A stretch of 64,000 bases of DNA from an uncultured Lentimicrobiaceae bacterium (GCA_964544545.1 CAZJCG010000019.1:3031-67030), one strand, 5' to 3'. Counted from the stretch's first letter, positions 33,842-49,613 are shown. Numbers and translations are program-made. Notes: generated from the letters alone by a model not told the origin.

Positions 33842-34099
33842 TTAATAAACAAATGACATCACCTGGACTTCCAGACCTTCGATCTGCCTGAGTTCTGCTT
33901 CGAAAGCTTCCCATTCCTGTCTGGTGCCGGTTAAATGAAGGATGATAATGCCGGCCCTGCTGCAAACATTATCGCTCAGCTCATGAAAACCCAGCCTGGA
34001 CCTGATCAGCTTCGAATAGTCAGTGAGTACCTGTTGTGTACGACCGGCTTCCTTGATCCTGTCGGATATGAGCAAACCTACAATACGGGTTTCAGTCAT
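33842..34099 (-). CDS. TM1266-like ACT-fold protein (putative iron-only hydrogenase system regulator), copy 1
   Basis: 85 aa (RIVGLLISDRIKEAGRTQQVLTDYSKLIRSRLGFHE). It lies 20 nt downstream of hydG, the usual context for this family. Confidence 0.65.
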   Translation of the reverse strand: MTETRIVGLLISDRIKEAGRTQQVLTDYSKLIRSRLGFHELSDNVCSRAGIIILHLTGTRQEWEAFEAELRQIEGLEVQVMSFVY

Positions 34100-34119: not shown

Positions 34120-35556
34120 TCAGAAATATAAATCTCTTTCTCCCGCCTTGATACGCTCGATCCTTCGGCGGATCTCAGGTACGTTGACCTTCTCATGGAC
34201 TGTCTCCAGTTCGGTGAGGTTCTTTTCGATGGCTTCGTACCCTTTTGCCTTGGTTTCGTTCGGCGCATAGTCTTCCAGATACTCAGTCAATGTCAGTATT
34301 GCATTGGGGGAACAATAACGTTTAATAAAGCCAGGCACCGAGAACTCCATGAAATGCTCGCCGGTCCTGCCAAGCCTGTAGCAAGCCGTGCAGAAAGAAG
34401 GCACATAGCCATCCACCAGCAACTCATCAATGATCTCGTTCAGCGAGCGGGAATCACCGACGTGGAACTGCTCACGGTTCAGGTTCTGCTGTTCATTTAC
34501 GCTCTCCGTATAACTGCCGATCTCCAGCTTGGTACCGCCGTCAATCTGCGAAACGCCGAACCGCATCACTTCATGACGGACTGACGGATTTTCGCGGGCC
34601 GTAAGGATCATTCCAGTGTATGGTACTGCAAGGCGCAGGATGGCGACAAGCTTGGTGAAATCTTTATCCGAAACACGGTACTTACCGTCGAAATTCAATG
34701 CAGATGCTTCCTGTACCCTGGGGAAAGAGATGGTATGCGGTCCTACATTGTAACAAGCCTCCAGGTGATTGGTGTGCCGGATAAGCCCCATAACTTCAAA
34801 CCGCCAGTCGTAAAGTCCGAATAATGCTCCGATACCCACATCATCTATTCCGGCTTCCTGTGCACGGTCGAGGGAGGTGAGCCGGTATTCAAAGTTTCGT
34901 TTCATGCCGCCCAAATGGTAATGACGATACGATTCGGGATGATATGTTTCCTGGAAGATCTGGTAGGTGCCGATGTGGGCATCTTTTACGATACGGAAGC
35001 CTTCTATGTCGAGCGGAGCAGCATTGATATTCACCCTCCGGATCTCTCCGTGTCCTTTCTTAACACCGTAAACCACCTTGGCAGTGTGGGCAATGAATTC
35101 AGGAGAATAATCGGGGTGCTCGCCATAAACAAGGATGAGCCTCTTCTGGCCGTTGTCCTCCAACGCTTCCACTTCTTTTATCAAAGCATAGTCGTCGAGC
35201 GTATTTCGTACAGCTTCTTTGTTCGAAGCCTTGAATCCGCAATAGCTGCAGTTGTTCGTGCATTTGTTGCCAATATACAGAGGAGCAAAGAGTACAATAC
35301 GGTTTCCGTAAATGCGTTCCTTGAGCTCACGGGCGCCTTGCAGAATCTCCTCTACAAGATCCGGATCGGTCGCGTTAATAAGGGTAGCTGTCTCCTTAAG
35401 CGTGAGACGGTTTTTATCCAACGATTTAGCTATCACCTCCCTGACCTGTGCACGGTCGGGCTTGGTGGTATTCAAAATATCCCAGATCTCATCGGCATCG
35501 ATGAAAGGTTTCATTCGCTGATCCGGAATTTTACAAACTTCAGGTGAGAAAATCAT
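34120..35556 (-). CDS. hydG: [FeFe]-hydrogenase H-cluster maturase HydG (radical SAM tyrosine lyase)
   Basis: 478 aa with the radical SAM motif CTNNCSYC. The C-terminal auxiliary-cluster motif CTAC-x22-C (CX2CX22C) and the length distinguish it from ThiH. Confidence 0.85.
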   Translation of the reverse strand: MIFSPEVCKIPDQRMKPFIDADEIWDILNTTKPDRAQVREVIAKSLDKNRLTLKETATLINATDPDLVEEILQGARELKERIYGNRIVLFAPLYIGNKCTNNCSYCGFKASNKEAVRNTLDDYALIKEVEALEDNGQKRLILVYGEHPDYSPEFIAHTAKVVYGVKKGHGEIRRVNINAAPLDIEGFRIVKDAHIGTYQIFQETYHPESYRHYHLGGMKRNFEYRLTSLDRAQEAGIDDVGIGALFGLYDWRFEVMGLIRHTNHLEACYNVGPHTISFPRVQEASALNFDGKYRVSDKDFTKLVAILRLAVPYTGMILTARENPSVRHEVMRFGVSQIDGGTKLEIGSYTESVNEQQNLNREQFHVGDSRSLNEIIDELLVDGYVPSFCTACYRLGRTGEHFMEFSVPGFIKRYCSPNAILTLTEYLEDYAPNETKAKGYEAIEKNLTELETVHEKVNVPEIRRRIERIKAGERDLYF

Positions 35557-35700: not shown

Positions 35701-36483
35701 TCAAAGTTCGATCTGAAGGCCATCATAGGCCAGATGGACGTTGGGCGGGAGTTTACTCTCCACGATCTCATACTTACCCAGAAAATGGCTTATATGCGTC
35801 AGATAGGCTCTTTCAGGCGACAGTTTATCAATGACTTCCAGTGCTTCGCTGAGTGAATAATGGGATACATGCCGGGAGTTCCGCAAAGCATTCAACACGA
35901 TGACTTTCGATCCGCGGATCAGTTCCATCTGATCATCTGCAATAAAATTGGCGTCGGTGATATAGGTGAAATCCCTGATGCGGAAACCGAAAACTCTCAT
36001 GTCCTGGTGCATTACCTGGATCGGCGTAAATTCCATGGCCCCGATCCGGAAAGGTCGTGAATCGAACTGATGGATCGTAAGCTGGGGAAGCCCAAAATAG
36101 CGGCCGGGTGCGAAAATGTAAGGGAACTGATCTTTAATCGAAGCAAGCGTTTCGGCAGAGCCGTATATGTCGATCGTTTTGTTCAGAATATAATTGAAGG
36201 CCCTGATGTCGTCCAGGCCGGCGACATGGTCACGATGGGCATGCGTGAATAGCAGGGCATCGATATTATCAACCCGGTGACGGAGCATTTGTATCCGGAA
36301 ATCCGGACCACAATCGAACACCACGTTCGAGTCTCCCATCGTCAACATGGCTGATGTACGGAAACGCTTGTCCCTGGTATCCAGGCTCTGACAGACTTCG
36401 CAATTGCAAGCGATAACCGGTACTCCCGTTGATGTTCCGGTACCGAGGAATGTCAGGCGCATTTGAGGTGATATGGTACTCAT
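35701..36483 (-). CDS. MBL-fold metallo-hydrolase
   Basis: 260 aa with the HxHxDH motif (THAHRDHVAGL) and N-terminal FLGTGTSTGVP. Substrate unknown. Confidence 0.75.
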   Translation of the reverse strand: MSTISPQMRLTFLGTGTSTGVPVIACNCEVCQSLDTRDKRFRTSAMLTMGDSNVVFDCGPDFRIQMLRHRVDNIDALLFTHAHRDHVAGLDDIRAFNYILNKTIDIYGSAETLASIKDQFPYIFAPGRYFGLPQLTIHQFDSRPFRIGAMEFTPIQVMHQDMRVFGFRIRDFTYITDANFIADDQMELIRGSKVIVLNALRNSRHVSHYSLSEALEVIDKLSPERAYLTHISHFLGKYEIVESKLPPNVHLAYDGLQIEL

Positions 36484-36492
36484 CGAATTCGT

Positions 36493-37440
36493 TTAATAAA
36501 TCAGTTCTTCCACTACTTTCTTGTCGAACAGCAGTTGCTCCCGTAACTGCGCCATGTCGGCAAATGTCTTTTCATCCCGGAGACGTTTTGCAAAGTAAAT
36601 CATCGCATCTTCTCCAGGTTTTAGGGGGCCGTCCTCACAGGGAATAAACTCAATCGCAATATCCTCCACCCTGCGATCCACTCCATACCGGCTGTTCTTT
36701 ATATTCAGAATACCTTTCGACGACAACCCGGCCGTTTCTATACGGACCGCATAAACACCGTCAGGCGGAATCAGCTTGCATTCTTCTTCAATGCCAATAC
36801 CGAATGCAGGAAAGTCCGAATCTGTCAGTCCGGAACTGCCAGGCCTGGTATTACCGGCCATAAAATAATGGTGATCAAGATAAGCATTGGCCCGTTGAAT
36901 ACGTCCTTCCTGCAAAGCTTTACGAATCAGTGTCGAGCTGACCGTTTCGTTATGGATATCCTGCTCCGGGATCTCTTCAACAGTAAATCCGTAATACTTT
37001 CCCAGCTCTTCCAGGTATTCGAAGTTTCCTTCCCTGTTAAACCCAAACTGATGGTTGAATCCGATAACGATTTTCTTTGCATGCAGTTTACTAACGAGTA
37101 TATTCCGGATAAAATCGATGGAAGTGGTCCTGGAAAACTCAAGCGTAAAGGTCAGGATGATAAGATTATGCAGGCCTGTTTTCCGTAAGAGTTCTATTTT
37201 CTCCCGCTGTGAATTGATGAGGTAGAGTTCTTTGCCGGCAGTGTCAGGATAAAGCACTTTCCGCGGGTGAGGATTGAAAGTGATCAGCACACTTTCACCT
37301 TCCATGTCCCGGGCCAGCCGGTTGATCCGGTTGATGATGGCCTTATGACCCACATGCACTCCGTCGAACGATCCTGTAGTGACCACAGGATTCGGTATCG
37401 CCGTCAGGCCTTCCAGATCATAAAACACCCTCATAACCAC
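36493..37440 (-). CDS. ribF: Bifunctional riboflavin kinase / FAD synthetase
   Basis: 315 aa with an N-terminal nucleotidyltransferase (GSFDGVHVGHKAII) and a C-terminal riboflavin kinase domain. Confidence 0.85.
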   Translation of the reverse strand: MVMRVFYDLEGLTAIPNPVVTTGSFDGVHVGHKAIINRINRLARDMEGESVLITFNPHPRKVLYPDTAGKELYLINSQREKIELLRKTGLHNLIILTFTLEFSRTTSIDFIRNILVSKLHAKKIVIGFNHQFGFNREGNFEYLEELGKYYGFTVEEIPEQDIHNETVSSTLIRKALQEGRIQRANAYLDHHYFMAGNTRPGSSGLTDSDFPAFGIGIEEECKLIPPDGVYAVRIETAGLSSKGILNIKNSRYGVDRRVEDIAIEFIPCEDGPLKPGEDAMIYFAKRLRDEKTFADMAQLREQLLFDKKVVEELIY

Positions 37441-37461: not shown

Positions 37462-38082
37462 TTATACTTTCTTGACAAAGTATGCCAGTTTCTCAAGGGA
37501 GGTAATGATATCGTATTCTTCCAGATACACATTGGAAGGAACGTTGATCGGCTTGGGCGTAAAGTTGAGAATGCCTTTGATCCCCGCCATTACCAGTTTA
37601 TCTGCAACAAAGTTGGTCTCCGCAGCGGGTACGGTGATCACGGCAATGCTGATATTTTCCTTCTGAATGATCTCTGCCATCCGGTCGAAATTGTAACACC
37701 AGACGCCCGCATAGGCTCGGTCGATCTTGTCAGGATTGATATCAAAGCCGGCCACAATCGACAACTTAGTCCTCTTACCACTAAAGTATCCAATGATTGA
37801 CCTTCCGAGATTTCCAATCCCGATAACGGCAACCCGCTGACCATCTTTGCTATCAATGATCTTCCCGATGATGTCGATCAGCTCTTTTACATCATATCCC
37901 TGCCTTAATGTTCCCGAGTAGCCGATCAGCATAATATCACGACGTACCTGGACAGAAGTAATGTGTAACAAGGCAGCCAGTTCATGGGAAAATATGTGAT
38001 GCTTTCCGGTCCCCAGGGCAATAAGCAAGGTGCGCCGGTACTGACTGAGTCGTTCAACTGTTTTGTCCGGGAGTTTTTTCAT
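37462..38082 (-). CDS. rex: Redox-sensing transcriptional repressor Rex
   Basis: 206 aa with an N-terminal winged helix (TVERLSQYRRTLL) and a Rossmann fold with VAVIGIGNLGRS. Confidence 0.85.
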   Translation of the reverse strand: MKKLPDKTVERLSQYRRTLLIALGTGKHHIFSHELAALLHITSVQVRRDIMLIGYSGTLRQGYDVKELIDIIGKIIDSKDGQRVAVIGIGNLGRSIIGYFSGKRTKLSIVAGFDINPDKIDRAYAGVWCYNFDRMAEIIQKENISIAVITVPAAETNFVADKLVMAGIKGILNFTPKPINVPSNVYLEEYDIITSLEKLAYFVKKV

Positions 38083-38115: not shown

Positions 38116-39240
38116 CTATTCCGGATTTGCCAGCAGGATGACAAACGTGCTCCCTTTTTCCGGGGTACTTTGAACTTCGATGGAACCATGGTACATGTCG
38201 ACAATCTTCTTTACGATCGATAAGCCAAGCCCGCTGCCGGTGATATTCCTGGTATTCGGATTTTTTAGCCGGACAAAATCATCGAATATTCTGTGCTTGT
38301 CTTCAGCCGACATACCGATCCCGGTATCCGAAACAGAGATGCGTATGGCTTCGGGTAGTTTTTCAAGGAAGATGTCCACCCTGCCTCCGGTTCTGTTATA
38401 CTTCACAGCATTAGAGATCAGGTTGTTCATGATGATCTCAATCTCCCCGGGGTCTGCTTTCATCCAGATGGATTCCTTATTGTTCAGGTAGAGATCTACA
38501 TCTTTCTGTATGGCATAGGGCCTTGAGGTATCGATCGAAAGCTGGGCTATCTTCCTGACATCGACCTGCTGCAGCTTCTGTGTTGGTTTTCCTGATTCTA
38601 TCTTGGTCAGATCCAGCAGATCCAGTATGAGGGTACGCATGCCCTTGATCCTTTCCAGAGCGCGGTCGATCATCTCATCATAAGGTTCGATCCGTTCGCC
38701 CAGCTGACGTTCCTGTATGATCTTCAGATAACCTTCAATAGCATTGAGCGGAGCTTTCAACTCGTGCGAGAGCACAGAAAGGAACTGAAACCTGATCTGC
38801 TTTCCCGTGCTGTTAAGCGTCTGCGTCATGCGCTTCAGGAAGATCTGTTTCGTGATATTTTCGATGGAAGCCCGGATCTCCTGGGGAGTAAAGGGCTTGG
38901 GAATAAAATCGAATGCCCCGTCGCGTGTGGCTTTCACAGCCAGTTCGAGGGAGGCATAGGAAGTGATCATTACTACAACGATGTCATAGTGTTTGTTTTT
39001 CACATATTCCAGCACCTCAACACCTTGAATATCCGGCAGTTTATTATCCAGCAGCAGAATATCGGGTTGTTCACTGTCAACCAGTTCAATTCCTTCCGCT
39101 CCCGTTCCGGCTTCCAGAACCTCAAAATCGATCTGTTCATCCATGAACGGATAGTCCACCCGGAAATTTTGCAGGATTCTCCGGGTTCCGTCCCGGATCC
39201 CCTGCTCATCATCAACAATCAGCACTTTAAACGTTGCCAT
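38116..39240 (-). CDS. Hybrid receiver-histidine kinase (REC-HisKA-HATPase_c)
   Basis: 374 aa. Receiver domain (VLIVDDE...ILLLDNKLPD). H-box SVLSHELKAPLNAIEGY. ATPase motifs DTGIGM and GSGLGLSIV. Confidence 0.85.
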   Translation of the reverse strand: MATFKVLIVDDEQGIRDGTRRILQNFRVDYPFMDEQIDFEVLEAGTGAEGIELVDSEQPDILLLDNKLPDIQGVEVLEYVKNKHYDIVVVMITSYASLELAVKATRDGAFDFIPKPFTPQEIRASIENITKQIFLKRMTQTLNSTGKQIRFQFLSVLSHELKAPLNAIEGYLKIIQERQLGERIEPYDEMIDRALERIKGMRTLILDLLDLTKIESGKPTQKLQQVDVRKIAQLSIDTSRPYAIQKDVDLYLNNKESIWMKADPGEIEIIMNNLISNAVKYNRTGGRVDIFLEKLPEAIRISVSDTGIGMSAEDKHRIFDDFVRLKNPNTRNITGSGLGLSIVKKIVDMYHGSIEVQSTPEKGSTFVILLANPE

Positions 39241-39242
39241 TC

Positions 39243-39629
39243 CTAAATTTTTAGTAGTTTCTTAATCTCACGTTGCAACTGGTCATTCCGGATCCCTTTG
39301 TCGAGAAACAGATCAGCATTGATCCATCGTTTGCTCTCCTCGGCCCGGATATCGAAGGTCATGCCCGTTTCAGCCGTCACAGCTGTGGCAATAATGATCG
39401 GTACATCGGGGTACTTTTTCTTGATCTTGTAGCTCAGAACGAAACCGCTGTCGTCCGATTCCATCATCAGATCCAGGATACAGAGATCAGGCCTGATCTC
39501 GCTGATGATCTTTTCGGCTTCGGCCTGACTTTCAGCAGTGATCGTCTCGAAGCCCATCTGCTCTACTTTCAATTGCATCTGAAACAGGTAATCCATGTCA
39601 TCATCTACAATCAAAATGCGTTTTTTCAT
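39243..39629 (-). CDS. Single-domain response regulator (CheY-like receiver only)
   Basis: 128 aa (ILIVDDDMD...LCILDLMM). No output domain. Confidence 0.85.
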   Translation of the reverse strand: MKKRILIVDDDMDYLFQMQLKVEQMGFETITAESQAEAEKIISEIRPDLCILDLMMESDDSGFVLSYKIKKKYPDVPIIIATAVTAETGMTFDIRAEESKRWINADLFLDKGIRNDQLQREIKKLLKI

Positions 39630-39670: not shown

Positions 39671-41698
39671 TCAGATAAGTCTTTTCCGGGGAATGGTGAT
39701 TGTGAACGTCGTTCCGGTTGGTCCAGCTTCCGGGTTTGGATTGGATTCAACCTTTACATCCCCTTTGTGCATCTTAACAATTCCATAAATGATGGGCAAC
39801 CCCAATCCTGTTCCCTTACCGATTCCCTTTGTCGTGAAGAAAGGAGTGAACAGTTTTTCCATGTTCTCCTTCTCGATGCCGGAGCCATTGTCCCTCACCT
39901 TGAAGATTACGGTATCTTCCGTGTCTGTGACCTGAAGGCCTATTTCTCCGGTTCCGTTTATGGCTTCAATCGAGTTTTTCAACAGGTTGGTCAATACCTG
40001 GGTCATCTGGTCAAAATCAAGCATGGCAATAGGATCCGTCACCTTTTCCGAGAACTGCACCGTGATGCCATCGGGGACGATAATCGAATCGATGCTGTGT
40101 TGTGCCAGCTTGAGGATATCCGTTTCACTCACATTCACCTGATTCTTGCGGGCGAAATTGAGCAATCCTCCTACGATCTTTCTGCAACGGTCAGCCTGCT
40201 CAACGATGAGCTCCAGGTCTTTGATCATCGGGTTTTCAGGAGGCAATTCCTCTCGCAGGATATTGGAATACATGGTAATTACGCCCAGCGGATTATTCAA
40301 TTCATGGGCTATCCCTGCTGAAAGCTGTCCCATTCCGGCCAGTTTCTCCGAATGGCGCAGTGCTTCCTGTACCGATGCCAGCTTCTCGTTGCTGGTGTCC
40401 AGCTCACGGATATATTTGTGCAATTTTTCAATGGAATAAGGCAGGCACATCTCTGTTTCAGCCAGCCCGTTGATGATTGCCACTGCATGCTCTTCACAGG
40501 AATCGTAACCGCATGCTCCGCAATTCAGATGATCTCTCTGCCCGTATTTCCCCATGCGGAAAAGCACCTCCCTGATCTCTTCAGGCTGTGGTTTGGGTAT
40601 TCGCATGTCCTTCCTGGCAAATCCACGCGAGAGATCAATTTTCCCGAATTCTTCCAGGTTTTTTTGCCACTCATCCCTATCGATGGAGGTCATCTTCCTG
40701 TTCGCATAATTGATAATTCTCGCCTTCTTGGCATAACGCTGGCTGCTGGCTGCCGTATTGGGATAAGGCGACATCCCGGGTCCCATGATACAACCTTCGC
40801 AGCAGAGCAGATGCAGGTGATGCCCGTTCAGGTTGCCCGCTTCAAACTCCCGCAAAGCATCAAGGAAATTGGCACGGCCGCCGGCAACGATCACCTTCTC
40901 CGACAGGATATCCTCAGTCACCTCCATAGTATTCAGAAGACCGTGGCTGAGCGGAAATATCGCACCCCGTCCTCCATGGGGAGGATCAAAATCAGATGGC
41001 TTAACAGCATCCAGATTGATCCTCTTCGCACGGAACATATCCCTTAATTCCCTGAATGTGATTGCATTGTCAATTTCTGTAGATTCAGCCTTCTTCGCCA
41101 GGCAGGGCCCGATGAAAACTACCCTGGAGTCTTCTCCATACATCTTTCTGACTACCCGCGCCATCGCCACCATCGGTGAAACTGTCGTCGTCAGTAATCC
41201 CGTCAGGTTGGGATAATAACGCTCAATATACGAAACGATCGCAGGGCAATCGGATGAGATTGCCTGTTTACCGGCTTCGAGCTGGTTCTTATATTTACGT
41301 GCAACCAGATCAGCGCCGAAAGATACTTCCGTAACGTAAGAGAAGCCAAGTGCACGGATCATTCCGATTAGACGGGTATAATCTTTAATATCCGCAAATT
41401 CAGCCGGGAAACTGGGCGCAACACATGCAATCACCCTATTGCCCGAAGCGAGAAGTGCTTTGACGGATTCCGTTTCATCCCTGAATACCTTTGCTCCCTG
41501 GCTGCACACCTTGATGCAGTTCCCGCAGGCAATGCAACGGTCAGGAATGATCTCAGCCTGTCCTCCCACAATCCGGATTGCCTTTGCCGGACATTCACGG
41601 ACACAGGTGTAGCATACCCGGCATTTTTCTTTAATGGTAAAAACCAGTTTATTGCCAGGTGATGAAGGGGCAGTATTTTCAGAACCGATTGCGTCCAT
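39671..41698 (-). CDS. Sensory-type [FeFe]-hydrogenase domain fused to a histidine kinase (HydS-HK)
   Basis: The ORF extends to a TTG at 41719 that overlaps the hydA stop; the first ATG is at 41698. Two CxxCxxCxxxCP motifs. H-domain motifs SSDCPAIV, GPCLAKKAE and CCEGCIMGPG. Extra motif CGACGYDSC-x16-C. H-box GIAHELNNPL. HATPase_c motifs DNGSGI and GKGTGLGLPI. Confidence 0.8.
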   Translation of the reverse strand: MDAIGSENTAPSSPGNKLVFTIKEKCRVCYTCVRECPAKAIRIVGGQAEIIPDRCIACGNCIKVCSQGAKVFRDETESVKALLASGNRVIACVAPSFPAEFADIKDYTRLIGMIRALGFSYVTEVSFGADLVARKYKNQLEAGKQAISSDCPAIVSYIERYYPNLTGLLTTTVSPMVAMARVVRKMYGEDSRVVFIGPCLAKKAESTEIDNAITFRELRDMFRAKRINLDAVKPSDFDPPHGGRGAIFPLSHGLLNTMEVTEDILSEKVIVAGGRANFLDALREFEAGNLNGHHLHLLCCEGCIMGPGMSPYPNTAASSQRYAKKARIINYANRKMTSIDRDEWQKNLEEFGKIDLSRGFARKDMRIPKPQPEEIREVLFRMGKYGQRDHLNCGACGYDSCEEHAVAIINGLAETEMCLPYSIEKLHKYIRELDTSNEKLASVQEALRHSEKLAGMGQLSAGIAHELNNPLGVITMYSNILREELPPENPMIKDLELIVEQADRCRKIVGGLLNFARKNQVNVSETDILKLAQHSIDSIIVPDGITVQFSEKVTDPIAMLDFDQMTQVLTNLLKNSIEAINGTGEIGLQVTDTEDTVIFKVRDNGSGIEKENMEKLFTPFFTTKGIGKGTGLGLPIIYGIVKMHKGDVKVESNPNPEAGPTGTTFTITIPRKRLI

Positions 41699-41715
41699 AA
41701 TGATTCGAATGATTT

Positions 41716-43440
41716 TCAATGCATCACTTCTCTTCTCTGATAGGATGTATGTAACATCCGGAGGCTTGTTTCACTCAGGGGTGATCCCAGCAGGTTCTCA
41801 TACAATAAGAGAAGAGAAGGATTCCGGTGTGCAAAACGGACAGCTTCCTTATCGTCGATCTCATGGATAGCCTTTGCCCTTGCACGGATATTGTTATCCA
41901 TCGGGTGGATTGGCTGACCACCCCCTCCTACACAGCCACCCGGGCAGGCCATTACTTCTACATAGTGAACATCATTCCTTCCTTTCTCCAGTTCCTTCAG
42001 AAATTCCGGGAAAAAGCCTATCCCGTTGATCACGACAAAACCGAGGTTATAATCACCGATTTTGATCCTGTATTCCTTGCGTCCTTTGGATGAACGCAAT
42101 TCCTGAATCTTCGGCTGCACCATATCCTTCCCGGTGATCATAAAGTACAGCGTCCTGATCAGCGACTCTGTCAGGCCTCCGCTTACTGCCAGCAGCTTTC
42201 CTGCTGAACTCCTCGAACGGTAAGGCTGGTCACCCATTTCAGGTTCCACCTGCTGGATATCAATTCCGTTAAGGCGGATCAGTCGGGCTAACTCACGGGT
42301 TGTCAGGATAGTGTCCACATCGGTCACTCCCTTGTGGGTCATCTGTTCCCGCTGCGCTTCGAATTTCTTTGCCACACAAGGCATGGCTGATACAGAGTAC
42401 ACCTGTTCGTCGGTCAGATTATGTTCGGGTGTGAAATGCTGCGTGATCAGGGCCCCCATCATCTGCTGCGGCGACTTACAGGTAGAAATGTTCTCTAGTA
42501 TCTGGGGGTTGGATTGTTCGGCATACTTAACCCATGCCGGGCAACAACTTGAGAACATAGGAAGGGACATGTTTTGCTGAAGCCGCTGAAGCAGTTCGGC
42601 GGCCTGCTCCATAACGAGCAGGTCGGCAGCAAAGGAAGAATCAAAGATATAATCGAAGCCCAGTTTCCGCAGGGCGGCAACCATGATGTTCTCCATGTCT
42701 TTCCCGGCCCGGAGCCCGAATTCTTCAGCCAGTGTGACCGACAAGGTGGGAGAGCACTGGATCACTGTTTTCACCTCAGGGTTATGCAAGGCATCCTGCA
42801 ATTCTCCCGGATGTTGTTTCTCGGTAAGTGCCCCGGTAGGACAAACCATGATGCACTGCCCGCAATTGATGCAGCTCGACAGGTTCATCCCCTTGTTGAA
42901 GGCCGGCCCAACCTGCATTTTATTTCCGCGCCCAATGAAATCAAGGGCTGTAATACGTTGGATTTCTTCGCATACGCGGATACAACGTCCGCAAAGGATG
43001 CATTTTGCGGGATCACGCAGGAGGCTTGCACTCGAAGGGTCTGTCTTGTACTTGTTCTTAGATCCATAAAACCTTCGTTCCCTGACGTTGAGATCCTGAG
43101 CAAAGCTCTGTAGTTCACAATTCCCGTTTCGCTCGCAATAAAGGCAATCGTCAGGGTGGTTGCTGAGCAGCAGCTCAATATTGGTTTTACGGGCTTTGAC
43201 CACGCGGGGCGAGTGGGTCCTGATCTTCATCCATTCTTCCACAGGATGTGAGCAGGCAGGCAGAAGGGCCTGTTTCCCTTCTACCTCAACAACACACATA
43301 CGGCAGGCGCCGTTGGGGAGCAGGTCATCGATGTGACAAAGCGTCGGCACCTTAATACCATTCCGCTCAAGTGCCGAGAGGATGGTATCGCCGTTACGCG
43401 CTTTGATGGTCTTTCCGTTGACTTCTATATCGAAAAACAT
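41716..43440 (-). CDS. hydA: [FeFe]-hydrogenase catalytic subunit HydA (multimeric, bifurcating-type architecture)
   Basis: 574 aa. N-terminal 2Fe-2S ferredoxin fold, a His-ligated cluster region and 2x[4Fe-4S]. H-cluster motifs FSSCCPAWV, AMPCVAKKFE and VEVMACPGGCVGGGGQP. C-terminal small-subunit-like tail. Confidence 0.9.
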   Translation of the reverse strand: MFFDIEVNGKTIKARNGDTILSALERNGIKVPTLCHIDDLLPNGACRMCVVEVEGKQALLPACSHPVEEWMKIRTHSPRVVKARKTNIELLLSNHPDDCLYCERNGNCELQSFAQDLNVRERRFYGSKNKYKTDPSSASLLRDPAKCILCGRCIRVCEEIQRITALDFIGRGNKMQVGPAFNKGMNLSSCINCGQCIMVCPTGALTEKQHPGELQDALHNPEVKTVIQCSPTLSVTLAEEFGLRAGKDMENIMVAALRKLGFDYIFDSSFAADLLVMEQAAELLQRLQQNMSLPMFSSCCPAWVKYAEQSNPQILENISTCKSPQQMMGALITQHFTPEHNLTDEQVYSVSAMPCVAKKFEAQREQMTHKGVTDVDTILTTRELARLIRLNGIDIQQVEPEMGDQPYRSRSSAGKLLAVSGGLTESLIRTLYFMITGKDMVQPKIQELRSSKGRKEYRIKIGDYNLGFVVINGIGFFPEFLKELEKGRNDVHYVEVMACPGGCVGGGGQPIHPMDNNIRARAKAIHEIDDKEAVRFAHRNPSLLLLYENLLGSPLSETSLRMLHTSYQRREVMH

Positions 43441-43471: not shown

Positions 43472-45400
43472 CTATTTCACTTCTACAGCAACAAATTTGC
43501 ATACTTCGAAGCACATCCCGCACCCGATGCATTTATCCTCCACAATGAAGTGGGGTTGACGGGGCTGTCCGACAATGGCATTGGTCGGGCACTTCCTTAA
43601 GCAGGCTACACATCCCGTGCATTTTTCCACGTCGATGTAATACACACGAAGTTCCTTGCACACTCCGGCCCTGCATTTGCGATCAAAAATGTGTTCTTCG
43701 AATTCTTCACGAAACCAGCGCAGCGCGCTGATCAGGGGATTGGGCGCAGTCTGTCCCAGCCCGCAAAGAGAGGTATCACGGATTACTTCAGCCAATCCTT
43801 CCAACTGCATGATGCCTTTAAATCGCTCGAGGGTTTCATGGCCCGATTCACCTGAAGGCCGGCGGGTGATGCTTTCCAGCACCTCATGGATCCTTCGCGT
43901 GCCTTCCCTGCAGGGAATACATTTCCCGCAACTCTCCTGGTTCAGGAACTTCATGAAGAATTTCGCCATATCGACCATGCAGGTGTTCTCATCCATCACC
44001 ACCATGCCTCCTGAGCCCATGATAGCACCTGCGCTCCAAAGCGATTCGTAATCCACCTGCAGGTCAAGTTGTTGCATGGGTATACAGCTTCCTGAAGGAC
44101 CGCCTATCTGAACGGCCTTGAATTCACGCCCTTCCTGGATACCGCCGGCAATTTTGAAGATTATATCTCTTAACCGGGTCCCCATGGGAATTTCAACCAG
44201 ACCGTTGATCATCGATTTGCCCGAGATACCGAAGACCTTGGTCCCTTTGCTCGTGGCTGTCCCGATCTCGCTGAAACGCTGCGGTCCGTGGTTCAGGATA
44301 AACTGGACATTGGCAAGTGTTTCAACATTATTTACAACTGTAGGCTTCCTGAAGAGTCCTTCTGTGGCAGGATAAGGCGGCTTAGGCTCCGGCATTCCCC
44401 GCTTGCCTTCAATACTTTTGATCAGTGCAGTTTCCTCACCACATACAAAGGCTCCCGGTCCTTTGATCAGGTTTATCTGCAGATCAACTCCGCTCCCGTA
44501 AATATTATAGCCCGACAGTCCGTACTCTTTCATCTGGCTGATGGCGGCCTTGAGCCTTTTCCAGGCAAGGTCGTACTCAGCCATAACATATATGTATGCC
44601 TTCGTTGCCCCGACAGCGTATGCCGCAATGGCTATACCTTCAAGCAGCATGTGAGGATCCCCTTCAATTACGGCCCTGTCCATAAATGCGCCCGGATCGC
44701 TCTCAGCGGCATTGCATATAAGGTATTTCTGATCACTCACCGCATTGTTGGCAGCAAGCCATTTCTTTCCGGTGGGATAACCACCCCCTCCCCTGCCACG
44801 CAGGCCGCTTTCATCCACCTTTTCGCAGATCTTCTCGGCAGTATAATTCCGGATGCACTTCAGATAGGTGGCATATCCGCCCCTGGCAATATATTCTTCG
44901 ATGGAGACCGGATCGATGATGCCGCAATGCCTGAGCACGATCCGCTTTTGCAGTGCAAAGAAGGGAAGCTTATCGAGGTTGCTGACTCCTTCCCATGCGT
45001 TGTGAAGTTCATTGGTGAACTGCCCGATCACATCCTCACCAGGTACAACCCCGTTGAAGACATCATCCAGCAGCGACTCCACCTTTCCTGCAGTAATATT
45101 ACGGAAGGAGATGCGATTCTTCCCGGGGAGCTGAACATCCACAATCGGTTCATAAGAACACAGCCCGATGCATCCTACTTCGATGATCCGGGTCTCTATC
45201 CGCTTTTCTTCAAGGTATTTCCGGATCGCATCAAGGGTTTCCTGAGCCCCGGCAACCATACCACAGGTTCCCGTTCCAATATAGATAACAGGCTTGTTGA
45301 TTTTATCATTCCGTAAAGCAGCCAGCCGATCCTGCACCGTTTTGTCGGATGAAGGCTTCGCCGACAGCACATTCTCGACCAGGAGATCCTTATCGTTCAT
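43472..45400 (-). CDS. hydB: NuoF-like flavoprotein subunit HydB (NADH/FMN-binding)
   Basis: 642 aa. N-terminal thioredoxin-like region. GRGGGGYPTGKKW FMN/NADH site. NuoF cluster ESCGKCIPCREG. C-terminal CTGCVACLRKCP and CIGCGMCFEVC. Confidence 0.9.
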   Translation of the reverse strand: MNDKDLLVENVLSAKPSSDKTVQDRLAALRNDKINKPVIYIGTGTCGMVAGAQETLDAIRKYLEEKRIETRIIEVGCIGLCSYEPIVDVQLPGKNRISFRNITAGKVESLLDDVFNGVVPGEDVIGQFTNELHNAWEGVSNLDKLPFFALQKRIVLRHCGIIDPVSIEEYIARGGYATYLKCIRNYTAEKICEKVDESGLRGRGGGGYPTGKKWLAANNAVSDQKYLICNAAESDPGAFMDRAVIEGDPHMLLEGIAIAAYAVGATKAYIYVMAEYDLAWKRLKAAISQMKEYGLSGYNIYGSGVDLQINLIKGPGAFVCGEETALIKSIEGKRGMPEPKPPYPATEGLFRKPTVVNNVETLANVQFILNHGPQRFSEIGTATSKGTKVFGISGKSMINGLVEIPMGTRLRDIIFKIAGGIQEGREFKAVQIGGPSGSCIPMQQLDLQVDYESLWSAGAIMGSGGMVVMDENTCMVDMAKFFMKFLNQESCGKCIPCREGTRRIHEVLESITRRPSGESGHETLERFKGIMQLEGLAEVIRDTSLCGLGQTAPNPLISALRWFREEFEEHIFDRKCRAGVCKELRVYYIDVEKCTGCVACLRKCPTNAIVGQPRQPHFIVEDKCIGCGMCFEVCKFVAVEVK

Positions 45401-45411
45401 AGAAGGGAATA

Positions 45412-45873
45412 TTAGGCCTTTTTACGATACATTTCGATGATGGAGGATATTCCTGATGCCGTAACGGCATTATGAAAGACTCCGTTGATATTCATGACCG
45501 GCCCGTTGCTGCATGCACCCATGCAACTAACCGTCTCAAGGCTGAAATAGCCGTCACGGGTAGTCTGCCCTTCCTTGATTTTCAATACCTTCTCGACTTC
45601 GCGCAGAACGTTGAGCGAGCCATTCATGTGACAAGCAGTTCCCCGGCATACGAGTATGTGGTAACGGCCTTTGAGCACAAACCGGAACTGGTTAAAGAAA
45701 GTGGCAATTCCGTAAATCTTACTGGCTGGCATTCCCAGGTAGGCGCCTACCTTGATTATTGATTCTTCATTCAGGTATCCAAACTCTTCCTGGATTTCCT
45801 GCAAAAGCGGAAGCAACGACTCCGGCGCACCCTTTTTATACCGGCCAACCAATTCATCCAATGAAACAGGCAT
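45412..45873 (-). CDS. hydC: NuoE-like 2Fe-2S subunit HydC
   Basis: 153 aa with CRGTACHMNG and CMGACSNGP cysteine pairs. It lies 11 nt upstream of hydB. Confidence 0.85.
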   Translation of the reverse strand: MPVSLDELVGRYKKGAPESLLPLLQEIQEEFGYLNEESIIKVGAYLGMPASKIYGIATFFNQFRFVLKGRYHILVCRGTACHMNGSLNVLREVEKVLKIKEGQTTRDGYFSLETVSCMGACSNGPVMNINGVFHNAVTASGISSIIEMYRKKA

Positions 45874-45919: not shown

Positions 45920-45964
45920 ATTGATAGATCGGAACTATGAAAATTATCTGTGAAAAAAATAACA

Positions 45965-45982
45965 GTGTTATCCTGCTAACAA
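45965..45982. promoter_or_regulatory. Rex-operator-like inverted repeat
   Basis: GTGTTATCCTGCTAACAA contains TGTTA-N6-TAACA and matches TTGTTAAnnnnTTAACAA at 11 of 14 specified positions. A weaker neighbour, CTGTGAAAAAAATAACAG, lies at 45948..45965. Confidence 0.35.
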
Positions 45983-46015: not shown

Positions 46016-46165
46016 TTTATACTTCGGCTGAACAGGTTTGCCCCAAGGGGGACCCTTCGGGTCAAAATTTGTTTTTCGGGACTTGCTCAGTAATACTGAA
46101 TCTAATCAGCTTTGCTTTGACTCAAAGAGTCCCCTTTGGGGCAAACCTGTTAAGATTCATTATAT
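46016..46165. repeat. Structured ~150-bp repeat, copy 2 (MITE-like), inside the divergent hydrogenase control region
   Basis: Homologous to 410..560. A perfect 12-bp inverted pair CAGGTTTGCCCC/GGGGCAAACCTG flanks a conserved core. It contains a GACCCTTCGGGTC hairpin. Confidence 0.6.
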
Positions 46166-46217: not shown

Positions 46218-46493
46218 ATGGAAAACCCACGAAAAGAGATAGTCATTTGCCTTGGAAGCTCCTGTTTTGCCAGGGGAAACAAGATGCTTGTAAAACTCAT
46301 CAATGATTACCTTCGCGACAGGGACCTTCTGAACCATGTCAGGTTCCACGGAGAGCGCTGCTTCGGACATTGCGCCAAAGGACCTGTCCTGAAAATCGAC
46401 GAGGTGATCCATGAAAAGATCGACGAAGAAAAAGTACAACAACTCCTCGACGCATTCTTCCAGTCGGTAATTGAACAGGAATACGGCAGGTAA
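46218..46493 (+). CDS. Thioredoxin-like [2Fe-2S] ferredoxin
   Basis: The ORF starts at 46038 but its first 60 codons read through the repeat; ATG 46218 (MENPRKEIVICLGSSCFARGN...CFGHCAKGP) gives the usual ~90-aa protein with Cx4C...Cx3C. Confidence 0.75.
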   Translation: MENPRKEIVICLGSSCFARGNKMLVKLINDYLRDRDLLNHVRFHGERCFGHCAKGPVLKIDEVIHEKIDEEKVQQLLDAFFQSVIEQEYGR

Positions 46494-46508: not shown

Positions 46509-48377
46509 ATGAAAACACCTTTGGTTTATATAGTTGACGAAAAATGCAAGGCCTGCTATGCCTGCATCCGGATCTGCCCGGTTAAGGCGATCGAGCTCAG
46601 CAACAACGACGAATTCCCGCGGATTGTCCCGGAACGCTGTATCGGTTGCGGCAGTTGCCTCGAAGTCTGCCATCCCGGTGCCATCCGCTATTACGATTCA
46701 ACCAGCGAGGCAAGGGCTTTACTGGAATCACCGAGAAAGGTCGCAGCCCTGGTCAGCCCCGGTATTTCGGGCGAGTTTGACGACATTACCGACTACCGCA
46801 AATTTGTCAGGATGTTGCTTGAAGCCGGCTTCGATTATGTTCATGAAGCAGCCTTCGGCGTTGACCTGGTCGCAAAAGATTACAATCAACTGATATCTAA
46901 TTTCCTCGGCAGATACTACATCTTTTCAAACTGCCCTCCCGTTGTTGCATGGATCGAAAAATACTATCCTCATCTGCTGGATAATCTTGCTCCGATCGTA
47001 TCGCCAATGATCGCCGGCACCAGGGTGATCCGTCAGGAACATGGCAACGACACCGCCGTGGTGTTCATAGGCCCCTGCATCGGCGCCAAAGAAGAGGCTC
47101 TTCGCTATGAAGATGAAGCCAAGGTGGACGCAGTCCTTACTTTCACCGAACTCCGTCAACTCTTCGAAGAGGCGGGAATCAAGGAAAGCACGGTTGAGTA
47201 TTCCGATTTCGACGGGCCTATCGGGCACAAAGGCTCCATTTATCCGATCAGTAACGGGATACTTCAGGCCGGAAACATCAGCGAAGATATCCTTCAGGGA
47301 AGTCTGGTCACCGCCGACGGTCGGGATACGGTGATGCAGGCAATCCGGCAGTTCGATGAAAGCATCGACCTGATACATAAACACTTCAACCTCTTTTACT
47401 GCGAGGGCTGCATCATGGGACCCGGTACTTCTGCCGGAGGTAAAAAATTCAAGAGGCATACCCTGGTCACCGAATATGCCAACAAGCGACTCAGGGATTT
47501 CGATATTAGCAGCTGGGAGGAAAACATGAGACGGCATGAAAAACTGGACCTGAGCTGTGCCTTCCGGTCTGATGACCAGCGTTTGCCTGTACCTTCGGAA
47601 GAAAAAGTTGAAGAAGTCCTGAAGATCATTGAAAAGAACGAATCGGAACAGGATCTGGGATGCAGGGCCTGCGGATATGATAGTTGCCGGGAGTTCGCTT
47701 CAGCCGTTGCCAACGGGATCGCCCGGACCGACATGTGCATCATGCATTCACTCAAGAGCAAGCAAGAGTATATCCGGACTTTGAAAATTACCAACGAAAA
47801 GCTCGCCCGCACACAACAAGCCTTGCTGGAATCAGAGAAAAGAGCCCTCGGCGAAAAACAGCTTGCCCAGGATGCCCTGGAAACCTCGCAGACCATGCTG
47901 CGGAAACTTCCAACGGCTGTCGTGATCGTGGATGATAACCTGAAAATCATAGGCTCCAACGACAGCTTTGTGACGATCCTGGGTGAGGACGCTGCCGAAA
48001 TCAACGACATTATTCCCGGACTCATCGGTGCCGACCTGAAGACCTTACTGCCTGTACAGTTCTATAAACTCTTTTCTTACGTGCTTACCAGCAATGAAGA
48101 TGTAATGGGAAGGGATGTACATATTGGCGACAAGTTATTGAATGTCACCATTTTCGGAATAAAAAAGAACAAGATAGTCGGTGGCGTGGTCAGGGACATG
48201 TATATGCCTGAAGTAAGGAAAGAAGAGGTGATCAGTCGGGTAACCGAGGTGATCGATCAAAACCTGGAACTGGTGCAGCAGATCGCTTTCCTCCTGGGCG
48301 AAGGAGCTTCCAAAACAGAGAAGATGCTGAATTCTATCATAGAGTCACATCGTTCGCAAGAAAGCAGTAAGCCCTGA
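46509..48377 (+). CDS. hydS: Sensory-type [FeFe]-hydrogenase with C-terminal PAS domain (HydS-like)
   Basis: 622 aa. Two ferredoxin motifs. H-domain motifs FSNCPPVV, GPCIGAKEE and YCEGCIMGPG. Extra motif CRACGYDSC-x16-C. Coiled coil, then a PAS-like segment (LPTAVVIVDDNLKIIGSNDSFVTILG). Confidence 0.8.
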   Translation: MKTPLVYIVDEKCKACYACIRICPVKAIELSNNDEFPRIVPERCIGCGSCLEVCHPGAIRYYDSTSEARALLESPRKVAALVSPGISGEFDDITDYRKFVRMLLEAGFDYVHEAAFGVDLVAKDYNQLISNFLGRYYIFSNCPPVVAWIEKYYPHLLDNLAPIVSPMIAGTRVIRQEHGNDTAVVFIGPCIGAKEEALRYEDEAKVDAVLTFTELRQLFEEAGIKESTVEYSDFDGPIGHKGSIYPISNGILQAGNISEDILQGSLVTADGRDTVMQAIRQFDESIDLIHKHFNLFYCEGCIMGPGTSAGGKKFKRHTLVTEYANKRLRDFDISSWEENMRRHEKLDLSCAFRSDDQRLPVPSEEKVEEVLKIIEKNESEQDLGCRACGYDSCREFASAVANGIARTDMCIMHSLKSKQEYIRTLKITNEKLARTQQALLESEKRALGEKQLAQDALETSQTMLRKLPTAVVIVDDNLKIIGSNDSFVTILGEDAAEINDIIPGLIGADLKTLLPVQFYKLFSYVLTSNEDVMGRDVHIGDKLLNVTIFGIKKNKIVGGVVRDMYMPEVRKEEVISRVTEVIDQNLELVQQIAFLLGEGASKTEKMLNSIIESHRSQESSKP

Positions 48378-48425: not shown

Positions 48426-49613
48426 ATGGCTGAAGACCAGTTTTATGTTGAGGTAAATGCCGTACAGAAAAACTACGACCAGGAAAGGATTTGCGGTGAC
48501 AAATTCCTGACCCGCAGGATCCATGAGGAGAACAGGATCATCGTCGTACTTTCGGATGGCATGGGGCACGGGGTAAAAGCCAGCATGCTATCGACCCTGA
48601 CTGCGACCATGGCCCTGAATTTTACCGAGGAACACAAGGATGTCAATACCATTGCCGACCTGATCATGAATACCCTTCCGGTCTGCAGTGAGCGAAAGAT
48701 GAGTTATTCCACCTTCACCATAATCGACATGGAGATCGATGGTGAAACCCGCATCCTGGAGTACGATAATCCCCAGACAGCTATCCTGCGAAAGAATAAA
48801 CTGTTTGATCCGGGCTGGCAATGCATCATACTTGAATCCGAGAAGAATGCAGGTAAGGAATTGCGTACCTGTTCCTTCCGGCATCAGAAGGAAGACCGCA
48901 TCGTTGTGTGCTCCGACGGCATTCCGCAGTCCGGAATGGGAAGTTCCAAGTTTCCCTTTGGCTGGGGAACGGAGAATTTTGAAACCTACATCCAGGAACT
49001 GGTAACGCATGATCGCACCATTTCAGCCCTGCAACTGGCCGCCAAAGTCGTGAATATTGCCAACCTTAATGATAATTATCACCCTAAGGATGACACAAGT
49101 TGCGCCGTGGTATATTTCCGGCAACCCCGCAAGTTGCTTCTCTGTACCGGCCCTCCGTATGAAGAAGTGAACGATTCAAAACTCGCGAATGCTGTCAGGG
49201 AGTTTGAAGGGAAAAAAATCCTCTGTGGTGCCACCACCGGAGATATCATTTCAAGGGAACTGGGACTTCCGATCATCGACAGTTTTGAATTCGATGATCC
49301 TGACCTGCCGCCGGTATCGTTCATGGAAGGAATTGACCTGGTGACCGAAGGGATATTGACCCTGGGAAAGGTCTCCAGAATCCTGAAAGATTATTCCCAG
49401 AAATATAAGCTCGGCAAAGGCCCTGCTGATCAGATCGTCAGGCTGTTGCTCGAAAGCGATGAGATCCATTTTATCATCGGAACACGCATCAACATAGCCC
49501 ATCAGGATCCCAGCCTTCCGGTGGAGTTGGAAATCCGGCGCACGGTGGTAAAAAGAATCGCCCGTACCCTCGAGGAGAAGTTCCTTAAGGAAGTAAGGAC
49601 AAGGTTTATCTAA
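48426..49613 (+). CDS. PP2C/SpoIIE-family protein phosphatase with C-terminal uncharacterised domain
   Basis: 395 aa with ICGDKF and VLSDGMGHGVKAS metal-binding motifs. The ~150-aa C-terminal extension has no recognised fold. Confidence 0.8.
   Translation: MAEDQFYVEVNAVQKNYDQERICGDKFLTRRIHEENRIIVVLSDGMGHGVKASMLSTLTATMALNFTEEHKDVNTIADLIMNTLPVCSERKMSYSTFTIIDMEIDGETRILEYDNPQTAILRKNKLFDPGWQCIILESEKNAGKELRTCSFRHQKEDRIVVCSDGIPQSGMGSSKFPFGWGTENFETYIQELVTHDRTISALQLAAKVVNIANLNDNYHPKDDTSCAVVYFRQPRKLLLCTGPPYEEVNDSKLANAVREFEGKKILCGATTGDIISRELGLPIIDSFEFDDPDLPPVSFMEGIDLVTEGILTLGKVSRILKDYSQKYKLGKGPADQIVRLLLESDEIHFIIGTRINIAHQDPSLPVELEIRRTVVKRIARTLEEKFLKEVRTRFI

Follow-up and report, generated by a model that had tools for sequence, protein, structure and literature searches.

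Group C [FeFe]-hydrogenases are usually described as proteins fused to PAS domains, and reviews treat their role as putative (PMC8924675, PMC11216029). HydDB lists [FeFe] group C1 as 'histidine kinase-linked (putative)' (PMC5037454), the enzyme encoded beside the hnd genes of Petrimonas mucosa (Bacteroidales) is classed by HydDB as C1 (PMC7768429), and a study of Hydrogenedentota describes HATPase_C or histidine-kinase domains in group C proteins, with kinase-fused proteins reported under both C1 and C3 (PMC11406978). Here, a fusion of this kind is analysed in a 64,000-nucleotide (nt) stretch of DNA from an uncultured Lentimicrobiaceae bacterium (GCA_964544545.1 CAZJCG010000019.1:3031-67030), referred to below as the window. 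The gene, at 39671..41698 on the minus strand, encodes a HydS-type hydrogenase/histidine kinase fusion that an earlier sequence-only reading had described as a sensory-type [FeFe]-hydrogenase joined directly to a kinase. That reading also held that only PAS-containing HydS proteins have been examined biochemically. This agrees with the searchable literature, in which the PAS-containing group C protein studied is TmHydS, beside the PAS-less and kinase-less group D protein TamHydS.

The sequence evidence supports an input that is a group C-like sensory-type [FeFe]-hydrogenase module, fused without a PAS domain to a complete class-I histidine kinase. The sensory-type substitutions, the lost proton path and the complete kinase motifs all agree with the earlier reading on this point. 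The favoured interpretation, which is given a probability of about 0.6, is a soluble sensor kinase with a group C (sensory-type) [FeFe]-hydrogenase input module that acts through a receiver (REC) relay.

Domain anatomy, H-cluster site and linker of the fusion

Residues are counted from the ATG at 41698, which yields a protein of 675 amino acids (aa) with its stop codon at 39671-39673; all features lie on the minus strand unless stated otherwise. The protein begins with two [4Fe-4S] ferredoxin motifs (41504..41623; C26/29/32/36-P and C55/58/61/65-S; Fer4-type dicluster Pfam matches), followed by an H-cluster domain at residues 88-307 (40778..41437; Fe_hyd_lg_C PF02906, E 3.9e-45, profile 2-245 of 245). 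A stretch of ~80 residues links this domain to a C-terminal Cx2Cx4Cx16C cluster motif, C393/C396/C401/C418 (40445..40522; PF04060, E 4.8e-09), of the type described for M2e/M2f enzymes (PMC8163306). The kinase part consists of HisKA (DHp) at residues 457-519 (40142..40330; Pfam E 5.3e-13), with H465 in GIAHELNNPL, and HATPase_c at residues 562-672 (39683..40015; Pfam E 7.1e-25), with N571/N575, D603-x-G-x-G (DNGSGI) and G629-x-G-x-G (GKGTGLGL). The profile matches to Fe_hyd_lg_C, HisKA and HATPase_c are all significant, and those of the two kinase domains exceed their cut-offs. The class-I kinase residues H465, N571/N575, D603-G605-G607, F617/F620 and G629-G631-G633 are invariant in the Bacteroidota clade or in the family. 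The best PDB sequence match of the kinase part is the ZraS cytoplasmic domain (9jfj, E 1.1e-33), and the AtoS/ZraS NCBIfam models match it at scores below their cut-offs.

Most of what the sequence-only reading had seen in the protein is borne out by this anatomy. The L1/L2/L3-like motifs of the H-cluster domain are present (SSD150-C151-P, GP-C199-LAK202KAE205 and C299-C300-EG-C303) within a match to the whole PF02906 profile, as are the additional C-x16-C motif (C393-x2-C396-x4-C401-x16-C418), with its PF04060 match, and the direct run into HisKA/HATPase_c. Both of the proposed CxxCxxCxxxCP ferredoxin motifs exist, but the second ends in CS and not CP. The possibility that a PAS domain lies hidden after the FeS motif and ahead of HisKA was rejected: with the Pfam threshold relaxed to E<=5, residues 305-465 give the FeS domain and no PAS, and there is no room for one because C418 and H465 are just 47 residues apart.

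The open reading frame at 39671..41719 also exists as described, and its TTG at 41719 indeed shares bases with the hydA TGA (41718..41716), but the ATG at 41698, 17 nt after hydA, is favoured as the start. The near-identical database protein P0001, which has 675 aa and two substitutions in its N-terminal half (counted by reading against the window translation), starts with MDAIGS and thus corresponds to this ATG. Most of the 120 closest homologues have 672-681 aa (three are shorter and probably partial), those inspected start at the equivalent Met, and relatives have gaps of 12-24 nt, with no overlap, between the hydA stop and the fusion start. For these reasons a TTG start with translational coupling was rejected, and the co-translation with hydA that had been proposed is not supported.

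To locate the H-cluster ligands, the fusion was aligned to the window's own HydA, which shares CpI numbering (C299, C300, C355, C499, C503). All four ligands are present, with CpI C300/C355/C499/C503 corresponding to fusion C151/C199/C300/C303; the alignment of the H-cluster cysteines therefore agrees with the earlier assignment. The second Cys of the fusion's 'CC' pair is taken as the ligand because a PAS-type paralogue encoded in the window has only ...YCEGC... at this site, which leaves C299 (fusion numbering) as an additional Cys beside the third ligand. Also kept are CpI K358 and E361 (K202, E205), P231 and S232 (P95, S96) and P324 (P175). In fold and in the four ligands, the fusion sequence agrees with the [FeFe]-hydrogenase superfamily. 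Other positions differ: CpI M353 is Gly (G197), M497 is Leu (L298), Q325 is Met, and the segment with CpI E279/E282 of the proton path is deleted. The changes of M353 to Gly and M497 to Leu are sensory-type substitutions (PMC10055695, PMC8163306).

Conservation was assessed in the 150 nearest representatives of 50%-identity clusters, retrieved with the sensor module as query. Of the 150, 145-149 retain the four ligand cysteines and 129-145 the equivalents of K358, P231, S232 and P324; the ferredoxin-motif cysteines are at least 90% conserved. Across 113 Bacteroidota orthologues, the ligand cysteines and K202/E205 are invariant. The proton-relay position (CpI C299) is Asp150 in the fusion, and this Asp is likewise invariant in the Bacteroidota clade, which is a new observation of this analysis. 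Among the 150 representatives Asp is rare at this position (A 49, P 25, S 21, T 19, C 13, N 7, H 4, D 3). In CaHydA, Asp is the only one of 19 residues able to replace the relay Cys, with about half of the kcat kept (PMC3485046), and in TmHydS the position is Ala (PMC10055695).

An AlphaFold model of the fusion, built on a 32-sequence alignment (mean predicted local distance difference test score, pLDDT, 86.4), contains a predicted continuous helix at residues 419-484 (40247..40444) that begins directly after C418 and bears H465 (codon 40304-40306). In Foldseek searches, the N-terminal two thirds of the model resemble solved [FeFe]-hydrogenases (top matches CbA5H, DdH, HydA of HydABC, and CpI; E 1e-17 to 5e-21) and the C-terminal third resembles the ZraS kinase core; PDB searches with the fusion, by sequence and by Foldseek, returned no group C structure. 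Among the 32 aligned fusions, the spacing between the last cluster Cys and the phospho-His is 47 residues in 19, 40 in four, 54 in four and 33 in three, and the two exceptions to this series (30/32) have spacings of 48 and 49. In an independent regular-expression count, the same series accounts for 25 of the 30 representatives and for 30 of the 31 genomic loci. The spacing is therefore quantised, and linker length has changed only by whole heptads. This heptad-quantised Cys-to-His spacing is a new observation of this analysis, and it is what a rigid coiled-coil transmission element would predict. In two full-length fusions, P0231 and P0236, the phospho-His is replaced by Cys or Phe and the 47-residue linker is kept; the two may be pseudokinase variants.

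Distribution, gene cassette and Rex boxes

A word-indexed search with the fusion returned 7843 matches, and a scan of GTDB species genomes found at least 584 relatives. A kinase C-terminus is present in 44 of the 150 nearest cluster representatives, most of them direct fusions; in about eight of the kinase-bearing representatives, the cluster motif and the kinase are separated by a further ~140-400 residues that may include PAS-like inserts. Among the matches listed, the GTDB species genomes with full-length fusions belong to about ten phylum-level lineages, including Bacteroidota, Ignavibacteriota, Planctomycetota (Thermoguttaceae and a 'Ca. Kuenenia stuttgartiensis' metagenome-assembled genome, MAG), Desulfobacterota, Myxococcota, Elusimicrobiota, Bdellovibrionales, Marinimicrobia and Syntrophorhabdaceae. 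A neighbour-joining tree of 148 sensor modules, calculated without support values, suggests that the kinase fusions and the ~620-aa PAS-tail paralogue class are set apart from the ~575-aa Firmicutes-type HydS. Judged from these sequences, the fusion design is real and common across many bacterial phyla. Together with the conserved gene cassette described next, this distribution speaks against calling the design unusual, as the sequence-only reading had done.

Most loci mapped with tblastn have the cassette order hydC-hydB-hydA-fusion-REC-(REC-HK), where HK denotes a histidine kinase. The complete cassette is found in 17 of the 29 mapped loci; L083 is one more, and L084 has only hydA-fusion-REC. 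Among the matches listed, the cassette spans Bacteroidota, Ignavibacteriota, Planctomycetota (including the Kuenenia MAG), Myxococcota, Marinimicrobia and Bdellovibrionales, and full-length fusions of Desulfobacterota and Elusimicrobiota stand in other gene contexts. In related loci, rex lies before hydC or after the second kinase, often with hydG next. Four loci (L015, L018, L019 and L022, from Ignavibacteriota and one MAG labelled Bacteroidetes) carry the cassette followed by a more divergent second REC-hydC-hydB-hydA set with a further kinase, and have neither a rex gene nor Rex boxes.

In the window, the neighbours of the fusion are as the earlier reading had them. Upstream lie hydC, encoding a thioredoxin-like 2Fe-2S subunit (45412..45873; Pfam), hydB, encoding a NuoF-like flavoprotein subunit (43472..45400; Pfam), and hydA, encoding the catalytic subunit of a trimeric NADH-dependent/bifurcating-type hydrogenase (41716..43440; NF040763, 703 bits) with the canonical C299/C300/C355/C499/C503. 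Downstream, and conserved beside the fusion, is a stand-alone receiver of 128 aa (39243..39629), which appears canonical when judged by eye and unaligned (DDD near the N-terminus, LDL Asp, Thr, Lys). It is followed by a 374-aa REC-HisKA-HATPase_c protein (38116..39240), a receiver-controlled second kinase that is conserved in related loci and in whose receiver the usual Asp, Thr/Ser and Lys are apparent by eye. Next comes rex (37462..38082; NF003995, 191 bits against a cut-off of 126), which encodes a redox-sensing (NADH/NAD+) transcriptional repressor. Between rex and hydG lie genes for RibF, an FAD synthetase/riboflavin kinase (36493-37434; position kept in L001-L004, L006, L008 and L029) that may be linked to flavin supply for HydB, and for a metallo-beta-lactamase-fold protein (35701-36483; kept in L001-L004). 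The H-cluster radical-SAM maturase gene hydG (34120..35556; TIGR03955, 482.6 bits) is directly followed by a gene for a small CPF_0552/TM1266-like protein (33842-34099; 'iron-only hydrogenase system regulator, putative'). Genes for HydE and HydF were looked for elsewhere in the 64-kb window and none was found.

The genes from hydC to ribF are co-directional and tightly packed, with gaps of only 2-41 nt, and are then followed by the metallo-beta-lactamase-fold gene, hydG and the CPF_0552/TM1266-like gene. Such spacing and direction are consistent with co-transcription of the hydC-to-ribF cluster. Scans of 33.5-46.6 kb for sigma-70 promoters, using a tool that does not cover Bacteroidota promoters, and for intrinsic terminators gave counts at shuffle level and no intergenic terminators.

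The full Rex consensus TTGTGAANNNNTTCACAA, searched with up to 3 mismatches, gives nothing near the operon and an overall window count at chance level. The core pattern used in place of this 18-nt consensus, TGTKA-N6-TMACA, is highly specific, with exactly 2 matches in the 64 kb (0.18 expected), both at the hydC promoter. The two adjacent Rex-type boxes, TGTGAAAAAAATAACA at 45949-45964 and TGTTATCCTGCTAACA at 45966-45981, lie 76-108 nt upstream of the hydC ATG, and this tandem arrangement is a new observation of this analysis. The core pattern has 18 matches in 20 related loci (402 kb), and every one of them is a short way upstream of whichever gene opens the cassette, hydC or rex. All 11 loci with a rex gene have such matches, as does L007, and the eight loci without rex have none. 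Transcription of hydCBA-sensor-relay-rex is therefore probably set by Rex according to NADH/NAD+. When the cassette and the remainder of the window were searched, no DNA-binding response regulator was found. The idea that the sensor controls the operon in which it sits is thus not supported, because the one DNA-binding protein of the gene cluster is Rex, with its tandem boxes at the hydC promoter.

Across the promoter region, a divergent unit on the plus strand encodes a small thioredoxin-like 2Fe-2S protein (46218-46493), a paralogous sensory-type hydrogenase of 622 aa (46509..48377) and a SpoIIE/PP2C phosphatase (48426..49613). The paralogue matches the fusion through the sensor module and the coiled coil (43% identity over 456 aa), then continues into a weak PAS-like tail, and has Asn at the relay position where the fusion has Asp. 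The unit is kept in L001, L002, L006 and L029. The bifurcating-type hydCBA is therefore flanked by two different putative sensory hydrogenases, and the presence of the PAS/PP2C-type paralogue beyond hydCBA is a new observation of this analysis.

The divergent intergenic region also contains a 39-nt inverted repeat (46028-46066 / 46116-46154; 87% complementary, 49-nt spacer) whose arms are unique in the window. A role as a conserved regulatory element is not supported, since the repeat is missing from four related loci; it could be a small insertion or stem-loop.

Further away, the window holds large cohesin-domain proteins (minus strand; 53894-55393, 55747-58203 and 60595-63216), one with a dockerin and another with a Por_Secre_tail of the type IX secretion system, which are cellulosome-like modules in a Bacteroidota genome. 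A DDE transposase gene (DUF4372 and DDE_Tnp_1; 30108-31274, minus strand) lies ~3 kb past the end of the hyd cluster.

Proposed mechanism and alternatives

In the favoured interpretation of a soluble sensor kinase, H2 would be bound and slowly turned over at the H-cluster, whose redox state would equilibrate with three accessory [4Fe-4S] clusters. The Cx2Cx4Cx16C cluster would sit at the foot of the continuous coiled-coil helix that is predicted to form DHp helix 1 with His465, and a redox change of this cluster could shift the register or rotation of the helix and switch autophosphorylation on or off. The phosphoryl group would then pass to the stand-alone receiver and/or the receiver of REC-HK, which together may form a small multi-kinase relay with a final target encoded outside the cluster. 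Separately, Rex would set transcription of the genes from hydCBA through rex via the two boxes at the hydC promoter. The presence of hydG in the same cluster and the conserved K202/E205, P95/S96 and P175 are counted toward 2Fe-subcluster binding, which is predicted from sequence.

Several points weigh against this interpretation. First, the AlphaFold model is a monomer and has low confidence (58-65) around residues 440-470. Next, since Asp alone keeps catalysis in CaHydA (PMC3485046), Asp150 is probably competent for proton transfer, and H2 turnover may exceed what a pure sensor needs. An M497L variant of a prototypical enzyme, as cited in PMC10055695, did not hold the 2Fe subcluster, and H-cluster occupancy of the fusion is for this reason not certain. 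Even the PAS-type HydS is called only 'putatively' sensory (PMC8924675), and no biochemical work on a kinase-fused member was found in the searchable literature. Finally, the Rex boxes are pattern matches and therefore putative, and no cognate output regulator for the kinase relay was identified in the window.

A more elaborate version of the sensor-kinase interpretation, offered tentatively, treats the protein as a 'hard-wired' redox-to-kinase transducer in which the Asp keeps an H2 equilibrium, the relay is non-transcriptional and one bifurcating hydrogenase is under three-input control. Here, the [4Fe-4S] cluster at the start of the heptad-locked coiled coil would directly set the register of the DHp helix, and H2 would equilibrate rapidly with the H-cluster owing to the clade-invariant Asp and the extra Cys by the third ligand. 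The kinase could in this way continuously compare the H2/H+ couple with the ferredoxin pool, and the REC/REC-HK relay would target something besides operon transcription. The fusion, Rex and the PAS/PP2C-type hydrogenase sensor would be the three inputs.

The same chain of clusters could instead report the redox poise of the ferredoxin/electron pool and not H2, in which case reduced ferredoxin or HydABC would feed electrons into the dicluster. Whether or not it includes a 2Fe subcluster, the chain would then register reducing pressure, and the H-cluster would only vent electrons or equilibrate them with H2. Such a sensor would fit a surface-facing entry through two ferredoxin-type clusters, as in catalytic enzymes, a signalling helix that adjoins the C-terminal cluster and not the H-cluster, the redox-balance theme of Rex and RibF in the same gene cluster, and an Asp relay that would permit real turnover (PMC3485046). 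However, a plain Fe-S sensor would need none of the H-cluster-specific residues (bridging Cys, K358, P231/S232, P324) that are conserved in the family, and the linkage to hydrogenase and hydG genes is conserved as well, so that this explanation is considered rather unlikely.

It is improbable that the protein is a regulatory or accessory subunit docked on HydABC, which would modulate the enzyme post-translationally (e.g. via the stand-alone receiver) and would not be a free sensor controlling expression. The solved HydABC complexes in the PDB searches list only HydA/B/C-type chains, and a kinase with REC and REC-HK is typical of a phosphorelay and not of a structural subunit. These points are set against a gene order directly after hydA that is invariant across phyla, a cassette without DNA-binding output and the treatment of adjacent group C proteins as the 'T subunit' of Bfu complexes in the Hydrogenedentota study (PMC11406978).

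A degenerate, Nar1/NARF-like hydrogenase homologue without a 2Fe subcluster, with a kinase regulated by O2 or Fe-S integrity, is very improbable: P1-P3 motifs could hardly be located in the C1 proteins of the Hydrogenedentota study (PMC11406978) and the changes of M497 to Leu and Q325 to Met differ from catalytic enzymes, but all four ligand cysteines and the K358/E361 and P231/S232/P324 equivalents are present and clade-invariant, and TmHydS binds a normal H-cluster with similar substitutions (PMC10055695).

The sensor-kinase interpretation matters beyond this genome since H2 sensing by group C [FeFe]-hydrogenases is still called putative in reviews, and TmHydS and TamHydS lack a measurable signalling output. 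A direct kinase fusion offers a simple in vitro read-out, namely H2- or redox-dependent autophosphorylation and transfer to the two co-encoded receivers. The heptad-quantised linker yields clear predictions for mutagenesis, and the natural Cys-to-Asp relay variant is a ready test of proton transfer versus sensing. Because the cassette is widespread among anaerobic Bacteroidota, Ignavibacteriota, Planctomycetota (an anammox MAG among them) and other groups, the answer would bear on how H2 production is set by fermenters and syntrophs in sediments, digesters and guts. This locus is one ordinary example of a widespread, uncharacterised family, and its value is as a tractable model for H2 sensing.

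Comparison with known systems

The fusion has all the tested features of group C except the PAS fusion. It resembles group C/C1 proteins in its two N-terminal [4Fe-4S] motifs, the full set of H-domain ligands, the lost group A proton pathway, the change of M353 to Gly, the Cx2Cx4Cx16C motif and its location beside a group A3-type HydABC. The histidine-kinase linkage by which HydDB characterizes C1 is present twice, as HisKA/HATPase_c in the same polypeptide and as a second kinase two genes downstream. Unlike group C as it is usually described, the DHp domain is joined directly, with no PAS.

TmHydS and the fusion share the cofactor layout, Gly at M353, the CN-binding Lys and the ligands of the H-cluster (PMC10055695). 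At its C-terminus TmHydS has a PAS domain and no kinase, whereas the fusion carries the kinase, and where TmHydS has Ala at C299 and Ser at M497, the fusion has Asp and Leu, plus the extra Cys299 before the third ligand. A further comparison group consists of the window's paralogue (HydS-PAS with PP2C, C3-like and phosphatase-linked) and the HydS/HfsB proteins of R. albus and T. saccharolyticum. The paralogue and the fusion both stand beside hydCBA and differ in output, which is a PAS-like tail with a separate SpoIIE phosphatase in the former and the fused HisKA/HATPase in the latter.

A similar gene arrangement is described for Caldithrix abyssi (Cabys_3675-3679), where rex, hydCBA and one further gene are proposed to form an operon preceded by the Rex box cTGTGAATCAATTCACAt (PMC5317091). 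The core geometry of this box, TGTGA-N6-TCACA, is the same as that of the boxes at hydC in the window. The rex gene is first in the Caldithrix abyssi operon and lies downstream of the relay in the window. We infer that the fifth operon gene, which is not described in PMC5317091, is an orthologue of the fusion.

On the kinase side, the DHp and CA domains place the fusion with NtrB/AtoS/ZraS-type class-I kinases and match the ZraS cytoplasmic domain best. The fusion has none of their transmembrane or periplasmic sensor parts, and the partner encoded beside it is a stand-alone receiver and not an NtrC-type activator. The established H2-sensing two-component system is that of the [NiFe] hydrogenase HoxBC (group 2b) and the kinase HoxJ. 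Its metal site is unrelated to that of the fusion, its sensor and kinase are separate proteins joined via a PAS-like region of HoxJ (PMC8163306) where the fusion is one polypeptide, and its output is a known DNA-binding regulator, of which none is linked to the fusion. The logic of the two is the same, with a low-activity hydrogenase passing its signal to a histidine kinase (PMC5037454).

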